In this document: in pieces, positions 8,641 through 29,134 of the stretch | How positions within the stretch are numbered: the first letter of the stretch is position 1 | How the letters are laid out: each line of letters starts with the position of its first letter | Virus record (IMG/VR): IMGVR_UViG_3300048576_000580 | Coordinates: 1-29,134 of that record | Strand: one strand, 5' to 3' | Source: a virus | Taxonomy: Duplodnaviria; Caudoviricetes | DNA length: 29,134 bases | Notes under the pieces: model-generated | What the model saw: the letters and a program-made list of their open reading frames with translations, nothing else | Told to the model about the DNA's origin: nothing | Database searches by the model: none | Position numbers and translations under genes: made by a program

Positions 8641-9137
8641 TGATTTATCCTTTCAATAATATTTTGCAGGTCTTCAGGCGGTATAACCATAAACGGCCTT
8701 GCAGGAATAACAATAACGTAAGGCTTGACAGCTTTTTCAAAAGTCTTTTTATGTTTTCTGCCGGCAAAAACTGTTCTTACACTGCCGTCCTTGTAGTGCT
8801 TAGACCTAAAGCGGATATTCCGCCCGGGCATATTGATTGTAGCGCCTTCCTGCTGCGCCCTGGCATAAGCTGAAGATTTAGGACTTGTGAAAAGTGTTAC
8901 CAGCAGTTTATCATCATCAATAGTAGAAGAAATTTCAGATAGTGCACCAGTTACAACAAGGGTTTTTGTTCCGCGCAGTTTCCCCTTCTTTTTGGAAGGT
9001 ATCCACTTTGGCCGGCCGCCTTCTTCAAAATTGCGTTGTATGCTTCTTTTTGCTTCAGCTTCTACAATTCTAAGCTTTTTAACCAAAAGGCTGTTAATCT
9101 GCTGTAACAGCAGATTTTTTACGTCTTGTTCCGTCAT
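8637..9137 (-). CDS. Phage virion morphogenesis protein (Mu gpG / tail completion family)
   Basis: RNFEEGGRPKW, KTLVVTGAL, YARAQQEG, IPARPFM; AAAGGAG RBS before ATG 9137. Confidence 0.88.
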   Translation of the reverse strand: MTEQDVKNLLLQQINSLLVKKLRIVEAEAKRSIQRNFEEGGRPKWIPSKKKGKLRGTKTLVVTGALSEISSTIDDDKLLVTLFTSPKSSAYARAQQEGATINMPGRNIRFRSKHYKDGSVRTVFAGRKHKKTFEKAVKPYVIVIPARPFMVIPPEDLQNIIERINQ

Positions 9138-10683
9138 ATAAAAATACTCCTTTCCGTAAACTGTCAAGCTCTGCATAACCGGCCTTAGACTTATCCCCGG
9201 TAAGGCCGTCAATTGCAGTTACACCGTCAAGGTTAAAAAATATTTTTGTAATAATAATTTCCCCGGATGTAAAATTCTTAAAGCCCCAGGTTTCGTTTGG
9301 GTCATTTGCTTTGCGTGAAAATTTTCTTATATTTGCATCAGGATTAAGTAGGTTGCCGCCAACGGTGGAGTGTTTCCCTGGGGTCTCGGCGAAGGCTACC
9401 AGGGCCGAAGCAGAAAAGTGTAACACTTCATCTTCCTTAATCCCATTCATTATTTTTTGAATTCTCCGCCTGTGACAGCTTGCAATATTTATTATATTCC
9501 CTTTATCATAACCAACACTCATAAATATAATATCATCTCCTTCAGTCTTAAAACTGCGGAAAAACAAAAGCGCGCCCTTGCTGTCTTTTATTATTATTGC
9601 CGGGTCTTCAAGAGTAGGTTTCATTGCACCAAAGTAATTAGCCCTGCCGTCTTCTTTCAAAAGCATCTTTTCATACTGGCTTAAATATTCTCTTGTAGCA
9701 ACAAGTTTTCCTTTACCAAAAGGAGTATTAACTTCATTATTGGGAAACTCATTTTCCCAGTTTTCCGGCGTCAATTCCTTTTCAGGCAATTTAATGGAAT
9801 TGCTTTCAAGTATCTTATCAATCAATCCTTTACTTTGATAAGCGTTTACGCTATATGCGTAATTAAAAGTATTCTTAAACTCCTTATAATAATCAGCAAT
9901 ATTGAACTGCTGTTTAATCCATTTACCCCAGATGCTTTTTGCTTCTCCGCTGTTGCGCTGAAAATCCTTGGCAATGATACCGCGTTTTAACAGTGCATCA
10001 ACTGAAGCATCATCAAGTGAATGTATTTGTTCCGGGTTAATTGCTTTCAGCTCTTCAGCTGAAAGAGGTTTAATATAACAACGGCAATTCCAATCATTAG
10101 GCGGCCATATAACAAGCCAGACAGGGTCACTTGCATAATATACAGAGCCGTCAAGCAGGGCGTGAGCTTCACGCACCCGGTTATCCCGGCGCGTACAATA
10201 CATATAAGCCGGGTAAATGTCCTGGAGCTTTTGCAGCTTTATCCATTCCGCAGCGTGATAAGCTGAAGTTGCAGCAGTCCTTAAGTTGGTCTTAAGGTCT
10301 GAAGGAGACGGCATATTCTGTACGGGTATATAATCAGCCAGAATATTATAGGCTTCGTCTTGAAACAATGAGTATCTATCGCTTTCCGGGTTATCAATTA
10401 GATATTTGTGTTTGCCGGAAAGTATTTCAAGAGCCAGGGCTTTCAGCTTTTCTTCAAGCTCATAACTTTTAACAGACGCAACGGTAAAGGCTTCAACCTG
10501 AAAGTTCTTTAATACTTCGTTATCTATGCCGGTATAACTGCGGTCAAATAGAGGATTAGGTTCACTAAAGCCGAGAATGTTTTTTTTGTTATGCTTTATA
10601 ACTGCATCCTGCCCTTTAATATAGCCCTTTACGATTTCCGCATAGAGCTTAGAACCTATATATTTATACAGGAACAAATTCAA
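9094..10683 (-). CDS. MuF (gpF/SPP1 gp7) minor head protein with C-terminal PBECR-like nuclease extension
   Basis: DNRVREAHALLDG...WPPNDWNCRC; C-terminal ELTPENW...YFGAMKPTLEDP...LLFFRSF. Confidence 0.85.
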   Translation of the reverse strand: MNLFLYKYIGSKLYAEIVKGYIKGQDAVIKHNKKNILGFSEPNPLFDRSYTGIDNEVLKNFQVEAFTVASVKSYELEEKLKALALEILSGKHKYLIDNPESDRYSLFQDEAYNILADYIPVQNMPSPSDLKTNLRTAATSAYHAAEWIKLQKLQDIYPAYMYCTRRDNRVREAHALLDGSVYYASDPVWLVIWPPNDWNCRCYIKPLSAEELKAINPEQIHSLDDASVDALLKRGIIAKDFQRNSGEAKSIWGKWIKQQFNIADYYKEFKNTFNYAYSVNAYQSKGLIDKILESNSIKLPEKELTPENWENEFPNNEVNTPFGKGKLVATREYLSQYEKMLLKEDGRANYFGAMKPTLEDPAIIIKDSKGALLFFRSFKTEGDDIIFMSVGYDKGNIINIASCHRRRIQKIMNGIKEDEVLHFSASALVAFAETPGKHSTVGGNLLNPDANIRKFSRKANDPNETWGFKNFTSGEIIITKIFFNLDGVTAIDGLTGDKSKAGYAELDSLRKGVFLYDGTRRKKSAVTAD

Positions 10684-12707: not shown

Positions 12708-12727
12708 TTTCTCAAATAGCGTGAAAA
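12707..12727 (+). repeat. Internal copy of the right-end motif
   Basis: TTTTCTCAAATAGCGTGAAAA, identical to 26570-26590. Confidence 0.95.
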
Positions 12728-17160: not shown

Positions 17161-17349
17161 ATGAATAACTTTAAAAATATAGCTGATATTGTTTTAATGT
17201 GGTGTTTAAGCCTTACCGCCGTTTTTGGAGAGCTGGAAGGGCTGTTGCCGGTAACAGAACAGGTATTAAAGATACTTGCATTACTGGGCTCATTGATCTA
17301 TACATTTATTAAAATAAAAAAAGCTCTTAGCAAGGAGAAGACTAAATGA
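17161..17349 (+). CDS. Small holin-like membrane protein
   Basis: Two hydrophobic segments and a basic tail (EQVLKILALLGSLIYTFIKIKK). Confidence 0.55.
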   Translation: MNNFKNIADIVLMWCLSLTAVFGELEGLLPVTEQVLKILALLGSLIYTFIKIKKALSKEKTK

Positions 17350-18677
17350 ATGTTGATTTGTTTTTAAGCAAAGTTGCCGATGTACAAAGCGCTATGTTAA
17401 ATAAAATAACGCAGAACGGCACATTAATAATAAATAAAAGGATGTTGGACAGCCTTTATAAGGATGCCTGCAACCATACAGCCCGGCACTGTAAGAATGC
17501 AGCCGGCAATTATATGTTTACGGCCGACAGCTTCTTTGCAACCCTTGAAACCAATGTTAAAGCGTTAAAGAAGAACCCGGATACAAATATGCGTGCCCGG
17601 AAAGCTGGCATTGCCGCACTTGTTACAGATGTAGTTACTATTGACACGGATATTACCACTGAAATACTTGGCAGTTCCAGAGTCATACACTGTTATCCTG
17701 GTATGGACTTAAAGACTGTAATTGACGGAATAACAGACGCAAGCGCAGATAAAGTTTATACAGTTATATGTTACCCGGGATTGACGATAAGCGAAGGGCT
17801 GACAATTAATCAATACATTAAGTTAATGACTATAAACAAAGCATTTGATGGGAAGTATATAGTTGGCGCACAACCCGATGATATAGATTTCTCATATTGT
17901 GATATAAGTGGTGCTATTTTCGCGAATGAAGAACTTTACGGATTTATTGGTAATGAAGCATTTACACTGGTTAATACAAACAACGATAAATTAGGACTTT
18001 CAGATATTGGCTTGGATATGGCTGTTATAGTTAGAGATAGAGCTAAAGCATATAAACTAAGGGAAATTGGGGGAGAAGCTAATGAAAGTAGCTGGCTGGA
18101 ATATCCTGAAAACAGAGCCCGAGGAGCTAAATTTATTAAGAATAAAATTTTTTCAAATATGTTTATTGCATGCGATTTAGAGGCCTCAATATTTGAGTGT
18201 TCGTCAATCAATGCATATTTTTATGGCTGTAAATTAGGAGCAGGAAATTTCCAGAATGTGACCATGAATGGTAGTTCATTTGTCGGCTGTGTTTTATCAA
18301 ACGCTAATTTTAGTAATTCGTGCTTAGCATTCACTTCTTTTGAGTCCATAGAAGGAGCAGGTACCCAGTTCTTGGGAGCTAAAATCATGTTTGGTGGATT
18401 CCCGGAAGCAAATTTAACATCTTCAAGCTTTGATTGTTTAGATTCATACGTAGTAGCGTTTAATAGCGCAATCCTTGATAGTGCGAGTTTCCGCTATGCT
18501 ATATTAAAAGAAGCTGATTTTAGTAATGCAAGCCTTGCTGGTGCTAATTTTGTAGGCGCTAATCTAACTGGTGCAAAATTTAGCATATCAAAAGCCGAGT
18601 TCAAAGCCGCTGTCGGTGCAAATGGTTATAACCCTGTTACGACTATTTGGACTGACGGCCAGCCCATTGGAGCATAA
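17346..18677 (+). CDS. Pentapeptide-repeat protein, possible tail spike/fibre
   Basis: ADFSNASLAGANFVGANLTGAKF repeats; IDGITDASADKVYTVICYPG cap motif. Confidence 0.75.
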   Translation: MNVDLFLSKVADVQSAMLNKITQNGTLIINKRMLDSLYKDACNHTARHCKNAAGNYMFTADSFFATLETNVKALKKNPDTNMRARKAGIAALVTDVVTIDTDITTEILGSSRVIHCYPGMDLKTVIDGITDASADKVYTVICYPGLTISEGLTINQYIKLMTINKAFDGKYIVGAQPDDIDFSYCDISGAIFANEELYGFIGNEAFTLVNTNNDKLGLSDIGLDMAVIVRDRAKAYKLREIGGEANESSWLEYPENRARGAKFIKNKIFSNMFIACDLEASIFECSSINAYFYGCKLGAGNFQNVTMNGSSFVGCVLSNANFSNSCLAFTSFESIEGAGTQFLGAKIMFGGFPEANLTSSSFDCLDSYVVAFNSAILDSASFRYAILKEADFSNASLAGANFVGANLTGAKFSISKAEFKAAVGANGYNPVTTIWTDGQPIGA

Positions 18678-18680
18678 AAA

Positions 18681-19766
18681 ATGATAAGAATTGTTATTAG
18701 CGATGATACCGGCAATCCAGGCGCCCACGGGCTTGCGATAAAAAATGCAATAGTACAAACGTATGGCGCCGGCATTGAAGACCAGATTGTAATTATAAAC
18801 GGCTATAATAACGCTAAGGCGTATATTAATAACAACCCCGATGTTATCGCTTTAATAAGAAGTTATGCCGGCGTTGCAGACTTTATTAACGATGCTAAGG
18901 CTGTTTATCCAAAGGTATTGTATTTCTTGCCAATGGGCGCGAACAGTTTTACGGAGCTAAACATATTTCAGTCTGAAGAACCCCCTCTGATTGTTACATC
19001 CGGGGCCGGTGATTTGGAGCTGCAAAACCACACCGCGTATGGCAAGGGATTAGAATTTTGGGATTCAGATCTATCCGATGACCTTGGTACTGACGATATG
19101 TCCAGTTACAGCAACGGTGTTGTTTTAGGCAAACTTCTTAAAATTAAGGACTCGCTTAATTGTCCTTGGTGGGAAGCCCGTTTTAGGGCCAGAATGACAA
19201 CTGCCCGGGCAGAACCAAATAGAACAACATCGCCTTGGGATATAAAAAACGGATACGGACGGATAAATGTTCCGGCTGCCATAGCATATAAAGGTCTTAT
19301 CCCGGCTGACCCTTACAGCCCGGTAGTCACAATAGGAAATGATGAAGTGGCTTATACATTAAATCCGCCGGCTGGTTATTCCGGTACGCCTGTAACAGCT
19401 ACTGTTGCAGCAAATACCTTTTACGCCGCAAGTAAAGAACTTGCAAATTATATTGCTCTTAAAAAAGCAATTGACCAGGCCGCAGAAGAAGAAAATGATT
19501 TTGCTTATATACATATAATGGGCCTGAAAGGAAATTTCACTACTATCTACGGGCCGGCTAAAGCGGCAGTTATCAACAGGGCGGAATTTGTCAATAATAA
19601 AATTAAGTTTACTGTTGATCTGCATATTGACGAGTTTACCTTGTCAAAAAGTTGTATAGATGTAAATGTTGAAAGCATTGAAGCCGGTGCGGAAATAATA
19701 AATAATTTATATAAAGAGCTGCTAAAAACAGCATATTATTCAGATTCACAAACAATAGAGGTATAA
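18681..19766 (+). CDS. Divergent subtilisin (S8)-like protein with a DUF5977-like segment
   Basis: IVISDDTG, GAHG, MSSYSNGVVLG, GYGRINV.AA; GYSGTPVTATVAANTF...SKELAN. Confidence 0.55.
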   Translation: MIRIVISDDTGNPGAHGLAIKNAIVQTYGAGIEDQIVIINGYNNAKAYINNNPDVIALIRSYAGVADFINDAKAVYPKVLYFLPMGANSFTELNIFQSEEPPLIVTSGAGDLELQNHTAYGKGLEFWDSDLSDDLGTDDMSSYSNGVVLGKLLKIKDSLNCPWWEARFRARMTTARAEPNRTTSPWDIKNGYGRINVPAAIAYKGLIPADPYSPVVTIGNDEVAYTLNPPAGYSGTPVTATVAANTFYAASKELANYIALKKAIDQAAEEENDFAYIHIMGLKGNFTTIYGPAKAAVINRAEFVNNKIKFTVDLHIDEFTLSKSCIDVNVESIEAGAEIINNLYKELLKTAYYSDSQTIEV

Positions 19767-26563: not shown

Positions 26564-26573
26564 CTCCCATTTT
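26550..26573 (+). terminator. Intrinsic terminator overlapping the TMP stop
   Basis: GGGAGTT-tctat-AACTCCC followed by ATTTT. Confidence 0.6.
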
Positions 26574-26619
26574 CTCAAATAGCGTGAAAAAAAATTCTCA
26601 AATAGCGTGACGAGTTACT
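26570..26619 (+). repeat. Prophage right end with two tandem putative transposase-binding sites
   Basis: TTCTCAAATAGCGTGA at 26572-26587 and 26595-26610 (23-bp period), then CGAGTTACT. Confidence 0.8.
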
Positions 26620-26664
26620 TTATACTTTCTCATTATTCCGCAAATACTCATAATTTCCATTACT

Positions 26665-27165
26665 TCATTTTGGCTTTGTAACATGTTTCAGAATTCTGAA
26701 TTGAGACCTTTCAGCATTTGGGTCATCTGATATTTTGTAATATACTAATCCAGCAATATTTATTGTTTTTTTGTCTTGTGAAACCTCAACTGATACAGTA
26801 TCAGATTCTATAACTTTAATTTTTTTTCTTATTAATTTTCCGCTAGATGAGCACCAAGAATTATAATCAGCATCTCCTCCGAATGTAACTTTTTGATTAA
26901 TATACTCACTCGTTTCTTCGACTTCAAAAATAATACACTTTGAATCAATCTTATATTTGCCCATTATAGAACTGAAGCAAGAATTATAGTTAAATTCACC
27001 AAAATCAAAAATAAACGTCCCATCAGAATAAAAGCGGTAAACATCTTTCATTCCTGCTGCAATCAATGTGTCCATAGATTGCCAAGTCCCCTCGAATGGT
27101 GACTTCTGGGGATACAGTATACTAGAAGAAACTATGATAATGAATACAATAAATCTAATAGCCAT
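26665..27165 (-). CDS. Exported protein, probable immunity protein of the RHS toxin
   Basis: Signal peptide; GTW...YRFYSDGTF beta-barrel pattern; starts 2 bp after the toxin stop. Confidence 0.7.
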   Translation of the reverse strand: MAIRFIVFIIIVSSSILYPQKSPFEGTWQSMDTLIAAGMKDVYRFYSDGTFIFDFGEFNYNSCFSSIMGKYKIDSKCIIFEVEETSEYINQKVTFGGDADYNSWCSSSGKLIRKKIKVIESDTVSVEVSQDKKTINIAGLVYYKISDDPNAERSQFRILKHVTKPK

Positions 27166-27166
27166 T

Positions 27167-28095
27167 TCATCTCCTTAAAATATAATACTGAATTTGAGCT
27201 TTAGAACTATAAACACCTTTACCCCTAGGACCATGTAAATTCATAAAACCGTTGTGGGCACCAATATTTGCAACCTCTCCTTTAGCAATATTTTGGCCTA
27301 CTGAAAAGGTACCAACATGGCCATGTCCATTTTTATTATAGTAGGAATGAATAGACAAACCACCATTCTCCGCATAAGCTTTGGCAGTAGAATAATCAAC
27401 CTCTGAATAGGCCTGAGATTTACTAAATTTATTTTGCATCTCATTTGCCATCCCTGTAATTAATACTCCAGTGAATAAATGCGTTGATTCCACTGTTTTC
27501 ATTATATTCTGAGTCGCAAAATTACAATATGTAATTCCATTATTAGGAACGAGAGCCGGATTGGAAGCATTTAGATTTTGAGCTTCTTGAACCACAGTAG
27601 TTAAATTAATATTTGCACTTCCCTCCAAAGTAGGGTCAAATCCTACAAATTCAAAATGCTTTGCAGTACCCTTACCAGTTTCAACAAATCTTGCATCGGA
27701 ACCATCATTTATTATTTTTTCGTTTCCGTCTTTATCTACAAAACTTGTCGTTGCCATTCCATCCGGATCAACCAAACCCAACGGGTTATTCATGCAATAG
27801 TTGTATGGAGACCAGCCCCGCCATAGGCGGGTAAACTTACTATTTAGCTGATAGTGGATCAACGGACAGCCACTCCCGAAGGGACAGGCTTCCTATTTCA
27901 CTATCATAATACCTTGCGCCTGGCGTAAGCCATCCGATTCAGGAGAAATAATCCAGTCCGCTTTCCTTGTCACGTTCCTTGCCTGTAAATTTGTATTTAT
28001 CATTCACTCCACCATTTACACTTGTCCCTTTGGGATAGCTCCTAATCTCCTCACCGAAAGGATTGTAATCCTGTGCAGAAAGGATGTTGTTCCTA
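27167..28095 (-). pseudogene. rhs: Orphan RHS core plus C-terminal toxin (Cys-His amidase-like), core disrupted
   Basis: QDYNPFG...YKFTGKERDKESGLDYF/GARYYDSEIG/WLSVDPL/GWSPYNYCMNNPLGLVDPDG interrupted by three insertions; toxin has TYCN and HGHVG. Confidence 0.88.
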
Positions 28096-28248
28096 GCTCT
28101 TAAAGTCATATGAATGCAGCCGGAATAAATAAACAAATGTTTGTGTAAATTACCTGATTTTTGATTACAAGTTAGGTTTTATATATTAAATTGTCAAATA
28201 AATAGTCTGAACCTTGATTCGGTTCTCCTGCCAAAGGCTGGCTTTTGT

Positions 28249-28399
28249 AAATCCTGAAAGGATGGCATAATAGTAGAAAAACAGATTGCAGCATTTTCAA
28301 AATCCCGAAGGAATGACATTATAGTTATAGTGTCATCCGAAATCGGATTTTTAGTTATACTATAATAATTATCTACTATAGTTACACCCCTTCAGGGTT
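28249..28399. repeat. REP-like short palindromes
   Basis: ATCCTGAAAGGGATGGCATAATAG, ATCCCGAAGGAATGACATTATAG and an inverted relative GTTACACCCCTTCAGGGTT. Confidence 0.55.
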
Positions 28400-28418
28400 A
28401 ATTTCCCACCGCCCTAAA

Positions 28419-28760
28419 GCAAATTAGTGTAAATTGCCACGGTGCTTTAGCCCGTGGATAACAGAGCTAAGATACGCACGGTCGGGCTTTAGCCATTTTT
28501 TAATCAAGGTAATCCCCCAATCAGGTAAATCATGGTTCAGACAATAATTCTTTTCAATGGCTAAAGCCTGAGGGGGTTGGGGTGGTTCCATTTCCCACCG
28601 CTCTAAAGAACGGTGCTAATTAACCCAATATTAACGCAAATTAGTGTAAATTGCCACGGTGCATCAGCCCGTGGATAACAGAGTACCAACAAACACGGGC
28701 AGGCATTAGCCATTTTTTAATCAAGGTAATACTTTTACGAAACCACATAGTTCAGACAAT
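28419..28760 (+). repeat. Two about 125-bp direct repeats containing REP-like palindromes
   Basis: 28419-28545 and 28636-28760 share GCAAATTAGTGTAAATTGCCACGGTGC..AGCCCGTGGATAACAGAG, TTAGCCATTTTTTAATCAAGGTAAT and GTTCAGACAAT. Confidence 0.88.
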
Positions 28761-28829: not shown

Positions 28830-28836
28830 ATTTAGA

Positions 28837-28882
28837 GAGCTGGAAATGGGACTTCCCGACCCGTCGGGACGACCTGCTGATT
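28837..28882 (-). pseudogene. 3' half of a tRNA (probably Thr-UGU) with altered T arm
   Basis: AATCAGCAGGTCGT[CCCGACGGGTCGGG]AAGTCCCATTTCCAGCTC; anticodon and 5' half absent, isotype inferred from the stems. Confidence 0.75.
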
Positions 28883-29134
28883 TCATTTCTTTTGTAATTT
28901 TACTAAATACTCTATTGCTTTCCTGGAGTTCTTTAAACTCTTAAGATAGCTCTCGAGCTTGACTGCTGCACTCCTTGATTCGACTTGTAAAAATACAATG
29001 ATTTCCCATGGACCTTTATTCTTTGTGCTGGTTACTAAGCCTGAGTTATGACTCTCTAACCTCTTTTCAAGATTTTCAGTCTGGCCTATATAATGCCTGC
29101 CTTCTCTGTTTTGCAATATATAAACAAAATTCAT
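28883..29134 (-). CDS. Small GIY-YIG nuclease (UPF0213/SLX1-like)
   Basis: FVYILQ...HYIGQTENLEKRLESHNSG...TK.KGPW...SRSAA.KLE.YLK. Confidence 0.92.
   Translation of the reverse strand: MNFVYILQNREGRHYIGQTENLEKRLESHNSGLVTSTKNKGPWEIIVFLQVESRSAAVKLESYLKSLKNSRKAIEYLVKLQKK

Follow-up and report, generated by a model that had tools for sequence, protein, structure and literature searches.

Three short hairpins that interrupt the core of an RHS gene exemplify a phenomenon that is real, polymorphic and site-selective, the micro-insertion of ultra-small mobile palindromes with a candidate mover. The inserts are very probably mobile micro-elements that carry no genes and consist of a short fixed tag and one or two G+C hairpins, 15-36 nt in all. 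They were found in the window, the whole stretch of 29,134 nucleotides analyzed here (IMG/VR virus record IMGVR_UViG_3300048576_000580). Up to about position 26,600 the window is a Mu-like prophage, with a transposase-like rve domain, a terminase, a Mu portal and a Mu protease; the host-like DNA from there on holds a probable immunity gene, an RHS tip, a broken core, REP-like repeats, a tRNA-like scar and a GIY-YIG gene (Table 1). Shared repeats and the similarity of the core suggest an Ignavibacteriales-like host. The structural genes of the prophage form two divergent blocks, and a 17-nt motif that stands at 26571 and again at about 26594 has a further copy at 12708, between these blocks; it may serve as an end site to which the transposase binds. 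Among the prophage genes, a Mu F-like head morphogenesis protein (9094-10683, minus strand) has a weak C-terminal match to PBECR2 (a Barnase/EndoU/colicin/RelE-like nuclease), resembling a MuF-toxin fusion, while a pentapeptide-repeat protein (17346-18677) and a protease-like ORF (18681-19766, called a protease by eye) lie on the plus strand among the tail genes.

Table 1. Features of the host-like end of the window.
Feature	Position	Strand	Basis or detail
Probable immunity gene, 166-aa ORF directly behind the RHS tip	26665..27165	-	inferred from position
Intact C-terminal RHS tip after DPDG, 196 aa	27167..27757	-	56% relative, L001
Broken orphan RHS-associated core, target of all three inserts	27758..28109	-	translation and weak TIGR03696 matches
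Insert 3, AGTTTA-tagged hairpin (family A), K-Y/P, net +19	27817..27840	-	hairpin 27817-27831
Insert 2, CCTG-tagged hairpin (family B), inside the Arg codon of G-R-W	27874..27888	-	15 nt
Insert 1, divergent member of double-hairpin family C, Phe/Gly junction	27921..27944	-	24 nt
REP-like palindromic repeats	28298..28730		99-nt copies 28415-28513 and 28632-28730; long palindrome 28298-28402
Probable dead tRNA 3' fragment, Thr-like; family-D hairpin 28854-28869 replaces the T arm	28834..28883	-	
83-aa single-domain GIY-YIG nuclease, tRNA-associated type, candidate enzyme	28883..29134	-	PF01541

The short core, the DPxG boundary, the variable tip and the immunity-like gene downstream are all those of an orphan RHS module, whose toxin and immunity roles are presumed. 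The tip has no Pfam match, and its weak similarity to CHAP/Tae4-like amidases (scores below 0.9) serves as a lead only, while two pieces of the broken core match TIGR03696 weakly, under its cut-off. A short palindrome of the REP-like repeats is also present in the RHS arrays of genome G226. The dead tRNA fragment matches the tRNA-Thr of locus L380 at 13 of 14 nt, the remainder being judged by eye; neither ARAGORN nor Rfam called it, and Rfam gave chance-level matches only.

All three inserts lie on the minus strand where the first-pass annotation had placed them. As it had also described, insert 1 separates the Phe and Gly codons and adds a stop, and insert 2 lies inside the Arg codon; the stop is an in-frame TGA, and insert 2 keeps the reading frame. 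Both interrupt an otherwise normal core, the flanking pieces of which translate as GLDYF, GARYYDSEIG, WLSVDPLSAK and WSPYNYCMNNPLGLVDPDG. Insert 3 had been read as a micro-insertion of net +19 nt with a frameshift and a stop; the net gain of 19 nt, the frameshift and the stops (two) are present, but 4-5 target bases are lost, making it a replacement rather than a pure insertion. The description of each insert as ending in a GC hairpin agrees with the sequence, with insert 1 refined to a double hairpin. At least two family motifs occurred in 0 of 20,000 shuffles of the 136-nt segment, in which three are observed, a figure that overstates the significance because the motif patterns were written after the inserts had been seen. 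The 26.6-kb prophage part of the window contains none of the family motifs. Uniqueness, local duplication and known IS scars had been named at the outset as grounds against the reading; the inserts are not unique in kind, local duplication was rejected as their source for want of a matching sequence within the window, and no IS scar was matched.

Contigs from another sample (X1) indicate that the inserts are polymorphic. A 1,640-nt contig carries a 95% identical allele, with 57 differences over 26635-27814, and aligns through insert 1; it has 67 letters against 101 in the window (27815-27915), and as the 34 missing letters equal 15+19, inserts 2 and 3 are taken from length to be absent there. 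Two further contigs carry an insert-3-like hairpin at the insert-3 site, and in a contig of 155 nt only the second of the two insert-1 hairpins is present. Insert 2 recurs exactly in two of 151 genomes, and a 16-mer of insert 1, with one mismatch, in ten of 151, in contexts that look like chance; the exact window inserts do not form repeated families. A DNA search of five genomes with the broken core gave no match. Viral contigs yielded 119 matches to the insert-1 motif, of which the 32 low-GC loci viewed look like chance, and nine matches to that of insert 3.

At the level of tag and hairpin, each insert belongs to a wider family. Family A, the type of insert 3, is defined by AGTTTA followed by a CCCGC...GCGGG hairpin, and its pattern is estimated from 2 of 64 parts to occur in about 4,200 GTDB stretches, chance matches included. 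The 80 titled loci are mostly from metagenome-assembled Bacteroidota/Ignavibacteria, Planctomycetota, Verrucomicrobiota and Patescibacteria. Among 123 family-A loci, one lies in an RHS core and four lie near GIY-YIG genes, the others including REP-like repeats; some (L246, L247 and L262) lie in sequences resembling domain V of group II introns and a gene for RNase P RNA. Comparison of the filled locus L029 with its empty twin L020 revealed four replaced target bases and a net gain of 19 nt, as in the window. The family-A hairpin also forms the core of CGTC-type repeats in L450 and L453.

Family B, the type of insert 2, consists of CCTG or CTTG and a hairpin, and its pattern, searched in 151 genomes from the G003 class, has 299 matches spread over 71 of them; a reversed control had 22. 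At the 70 loci examined, family B has inserted cleanly into tRNA fragments, REP-like repeats and, once, an RHS core, apart from some chance matches in G+C-rich genomes. No flanking duplication of 2 nt or more accompanies 61 of 71 copies, and matches are mostly single, with a highest load of 25 per genome. A polysaccharide locus full of toxin-antitoxin cassettes (L540, G323:C42:447000-466000) has CGTC-type repeats between the cassettes, with inserts of families B and C.

The type of insert 1, family C, is a two-fold symmetric double hairpin of 21-22 nt; in 201 genomes from the G001 order its pattern matches 203 times, in 84 of them, where a control yields about 90 matches. Its flanks follow TTY/RAA, with the insertion point at the slash, so that the target is itself two-fold symmetric, and 62 of 63 copies lack a flanking duplication of at least 2 nt. 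The loop of the first hairpin is purine-rich in 57/63 copies and that of the second begins with T in 54/63, copies within a genome not being independent; by sequence, these are the same loops on opposite strands, a DNA-level design. Copies occupy exact palindrome centers, tRNA T loops in both orientations, CGTC-type repeats and, as in-frame 21-nt forms, genes. In L528, L533 and L537 such 21-nt forms stand in long open frames of 577-940 codons and are read through as seven extra residues. Family C is also mostly single, with at most 12 matches per genome, and G365 has a 14-nt half-element form. The first-pass annotation had proposed an undescribed process that writes tiny hairpins into conserved multicopy sequence: the recurrence, the conserved repeated targets and the lack of target duplication hold for these families, but the inserts are stereotyped family copies rather than freshly written strings.

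RHS cores are repeated targets. The Phe/Gly site of insert 1 is filled in six other genomes of the order Ignavibacteriales. A codon pattern for Phe/Gly that is blind to inserts had six matches in four of 301 genomes, against none for the control, and all six had hairpins at Phe/Gly, while a search for family C that is blind to RHS placed 4 of 69 copies in RHS cores, in two more genomes and all at Phe/Gly. Unlike hairpins occupy this same site. Over 63 flank bases, the filled cores of G226 and G282, and one from G365, share 97-100% identity with empty cores in the genome that carries them and 75-83% with the filled cores in other genomes, which points to independent insertions. Among the loci compared, G424, G203, G315 and the window have no near-identical empty twin, and G365 and G424 share one Phe/Gly variant, with flanks 89% identical; some cases may therefore be inherited.

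Other codons are hit as well, namely G-R/W in G226, E/R in G202 and G203 (on the opposite strand), K-Y-K/F in G051 and A-D/K in three cores of G231. The core of L029, a locus chosen by tip similarity alone, is hit at E-R/D, K-Y-K/F and R-F/Y, giving three inserts in one core, as in the window. At the insert-2 site (G-R/W-L), 206 genomes yielded no further insert with a pattern that misses the G226 case; at the insert-3 site, one of 206 genomes gave a match, and none fell exactly at K-Y/P. Most cores are clean, with a motif in 0 of the 30 best-scoring core loci. In RHS arrays that were partly selected for core inserts, 17 tagged hairpins were counted in 14.6 kb of core, three doubtful ones in 100.5 kb of ORF and two doubtful ones in 22.7 kb of intergenic DNA (15/5/2 by script, with two "ORF" matches reassigned to core at a locus end). 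One insert is common to two or three cores within the arrays of G203, G282, G202, G231 and L029, which fits gene conversion. Six intact RHS cores folded as DNA have no consistent hairpin at Phe/Gly, so that structure does not explain the hot spot. Attraction of inserts by native D-P-L-A codons that resemble the hairpin was considered and rejected: one case fits (G231, with the insert at the hairpin foot), but the window core lacks the mimic. Between the orphan RHS cassettes in the arrays of G081, G202 and G226 (L345, L476, L483, L487, L490, L473 and L498), one conserved palindrome stands per cassette; these palindromes are reminiscent of cassette boundary sites.

Hairpins of a further type, family D, stand in place of arms in dead tRNA copies that lie behind small GIY-YIG genes. 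There are 824 matches to the GIY-YIG family in 151 genomes, UvrC included. The small genes occur in tandem tRNA cassettes, the layout in relatives being a tRNA, the GIY-YIG gene and a hairpin-bearing tRNA copy, and the flanking repeats of several subfamilies carry inserts. The window gene lies about 1 kb from the three inserts and has one hairpin in the tRNA-like scar 14 nt behind its stop, its upstream side being beyond the contig end. Its closest solved structures are UPF0213 and SLX1, and viral contigs contain no relative of it. In L616 (G107:C2:365054-368832), thirteen units of tRNA fragment and GIY-YIG gene follow in tandem with a period of about 298 bp, with shorter arrays in L617-L620, and in L442 and L461 hairpins are nested several deep in dead tRNA copies. 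Another single-domain GIY-YIG subfamily (L433-L439 and L622) has its own repeats, of the CCCTGAGC...GAAGGG type, and is neither Ssn-like nor tRNA-linked.

Blunt insertion, fixed polarity, the preference for hairpin loops and the strand-opposed loops suggest a process at the level of DNA, probably of single strands. Removal at the RNA level, raised in the first-pass annotation, is unlikely, since family members stand in both orientations in tRNA copies, including T loops, and in RHS cores; judged by DNA orientation alone, the inserts do not keep the fixed orientation to the transcript that is expected of introns. The explanation as a whole, with independent landing at fixed RHS codons and movement as single-stranded DNA by small GIY-YIG nucleases with host repair, has in our judgment a little short of an even chance. 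An Ssn-like nuclease would bind the tag and hairpin in single-stranded DNA and cut beside them, and the short piece would then be ligated or copied into a nick in transiently single-stranded or extruded DNA. Candidate exposed targets are the hairpin loops of repeats, tRNA gene copies and RHS cores, the last of which may become single-stranded during the recombination that exchanges tips. Gene conversion would subsequently spread an insert along an array, and survival would be expected mainly where inserts are tolerated, in orphan cores, dead tRNA copies and repeats, or in frame.

The small single-domain GIY-YIG nucleases are put forward only tentatively as the movers. GIY-YIG enzymes hydrolyze DNA and do not join strands, so that a clean blunt insertion would need extra steps. 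The first-pass annotation had named GIY-YIG or HUH enzymes as possible drivers, and genome-level counts fit GIY-YIG and Y1 about equally: family-B counts correlate with Y1 counts at a rho of 0.33 and with GIY-YIG counts at 0.29 (partial 0.24 and 0.17, uncorrected for kinship and completeness). Of 30 GIY-YIG loci, 13 have a motif no farther than 500 bp away, compared with four of the 30 Y1 loci (p 0.02); with families A, B, C and E alone the numbers fall to 6/30 and 2/30 (p 0.25), and the proximity to GIY-YIG therefore rests on family D in dead tRNA copies. The draft genome G027 has 15 family-B copies and one GIY-YIG match. The closest biochemical precedent for the proposed mover is, by analogy, SsnA, a GIY-YIG enzyme of 94 aa, which binds a tagged hairpin when the DNA is single-stranded and cleaves a few bases upstream of it (PMC11893778). 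The fuller proposal, that in an as yet undescribed kind of transposition GIY-YIG enzymes of 80-90 residues in tRNA-gene cassettes move tagged hairpins of 15-25 nt as single-stranded DNA, bluntly and site-selectively, into recombining repeats, and thereby silence or retune RHS toxin-tip arrays through their conserved core, is more doubtful.

Strand joining is better explained if HUH/Y1 transposases of the TnpA-IS200 or RAYT type cut and join minimal REP-like units, the tag being the guide tetranucleotide at the hairpin foot and the insertion going into single-stranded DNA without duplication. HUH enzymes bind hairpins of 20-25 nt, rely on a tetranucleotide that lies 5' of the foot, and can ligate as well as cut (PMC6006769); CCTG, a hairpin and a clean insertion fit this scheme, and Y1 genes are present in 117 of 151 genomes, with a correlation slightly better than that of GIY-YIG. 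However, no motif of families A, B or C lies within 500 bp of the 30 best Y1 loci among 430 matches, the drafts G008 and G027 have 8 and 15 copies without a Y1 match, and the tags differ from GTAG. In addition, one study in Pseudomonas observed no excision of REP singlets (PMC3116915). On balance, this alternative ranks a short way behind the GIY-YIG mover and is likewise less probable than not.

The remaining explanations are less probable still. With no dedicated enzyme, replication or repair polymerases might switch template onto an existing hairpin copy where forks stall or DNA breaks, using 1-4 bases of microhomology as a guide, and such switching would accommodate the variable loops and lengths, the 14-nt half element of G365, the nested stacks, the replaced tRNA arms and the weak enzyme correlations. 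It is nonetheless improbable, given the sharp constant ends, the fixed tags, the fixed orientation to the TTY side, the symmetric target and the same families in distant phyla. A slightly smaller probability is assigned to untargeted insertion, in which a few old events were inherited, spread by gene conversion or RHS cassette transfer and noticed only in conserved targets. The inserts common to neighboring cores, the variant held in common by G365 and G424 and the partial choice of arrays on core inserts agree with such a history, whereas the pairing of filled cores with empty cores of their own genomes, the unlike hairpins at one site and the near absence of tagged hairpins from intergenic array DNA speak against it. 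All cases come from metagenome-derived records, in line with an assembly or library artefact at repeats, but the stereotyped make-up of the families, whose stems show compensatory changes across many assemblies, inserts on multi-megabase contigs (G051, G207 and G199) and the independent X1 contigs make this source highly improbable. Independent landing with a GIY-YIG mover remains the preferred reading, at the strength given above.

Several known systems resemble the inserts in part, the REPs, the Nostoc SDRs and the Ssn/SRM system most closely. The REP and REPIN elements linked to RAYT enzymes also have a foot tag on a G+C hairpin, are dispersed without coding capacity and sometimes stand in frame (PMC3733652, PMC3116915, PMC6006769), and the inserts are likewise dispersed, non-coding short palindromes with an unpaired foot. 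They differ from REPs as singlets of 15-24 nt with a handful of copies per genome and no flanking RAYT gene, and in place of the end tetranucleotide GTAG/CGTC they have CCTG/CTTG, AGTTTA or a second hairpin. No Y1 gene flanked by the repeat was found among the 30 best Y1 loci of 430 matches, and at the loads given above copy number is not high and most copies stand singly, not as inverted doublets; the inserts enter REPs, tRNA copies and RHS cores and do not form doublets of the REP type. The Ssn nucleases with their NTS/SRM repeats (Chenal et al. 2025, PMC11893778) are alike in being small single-domain GIY-YIG proteins beside tagged hairpins, and the first step proposed here is modeled on the way they recognize tag and hairpin in single-stranded DNA. 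Over 65 residues the window protein shares 31% identity with an Ssn-type protein, and it lacks the Ssn-type sorting motif; with UPF0213 as its nearest structure, it probably belongs to a sister subfamily of Ssn rather than to the Ssn clade (cd10448) itself. The Ssn paper makes no mention of tRNA and demonstrates cutting only, not insertion (PMC11893778).

Like the inserts, IS200/IS605 elements are single-strand, hairpin-ended and free of target duplication (PMC6006769). Compared with these elements, with IS91 and with their derivatives, the inserts are 10-100 times shorter, and families A and B have no separate left and right ends. IS91 elements also move as single strands, end in hairpins and make no target duplication. 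No IS91-type arrangement of a Y2 transposase with matching ends was found for the inserts, and the IS91 transposase was rejected as mover, being present in five of 151 genomes with no motif at four of its loci. Classical MITEs have terminal inverted repeats and a target-site duplication, and the copies of families B and C described above mostly lack such a duplication. The double-hairpin elements and GC clusters of fungal mitochondria are short G+C double hairpins with preferred sites, sometimes in frame; the inserts differ in being bacterial, smaller and two-fold symmetric with strand-opposed loops. The SDR repeats of Nostoc, treated by Elhai et al. in 2008, reportedly insert without duplication, and to our knowledge they have no known enzyme, nor do we know of a report of GIY-YIG cassettes or RHS hot spots for them. 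They belong to another phylum, and the likeness is one of description. At about 20 bp, they may be mobile (PMC2884548, PMC3116915).

Searches of the open-licence PMC and bioRxiv literature yielded no description of these families, the tRNA cassette or the targeting of RHS cores; the supplements of the Ssn paper list SRM variants and may include these hairpins (PMC11893778). The spread of very short palindromic repeats has long been a puzzle, and for CGTC-type REPs no transposase is known (PMC3733652). The RHS core offers an unusually clean test bed for it, with a conserved coding target, filled and empty twins, base-exact junctions, three junction rules and a recurrently hit site, and the question of the enzyme becomes testable with short oligonucleotides. 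If a small single-strand nuclease moves them, the hairpins would rank with the smallest mobile DNAs on record. A tiny enzyme able to insert a 22-nt cassette with no duplication would, if true, be useful as a tool. For the bacteria that carry them, these inserts add a decay route for polymorphic-toxin arrays, and they account for a class of frameshifts that, in genomes from uncultured bacteria, would otherwise pass for assembly errors.
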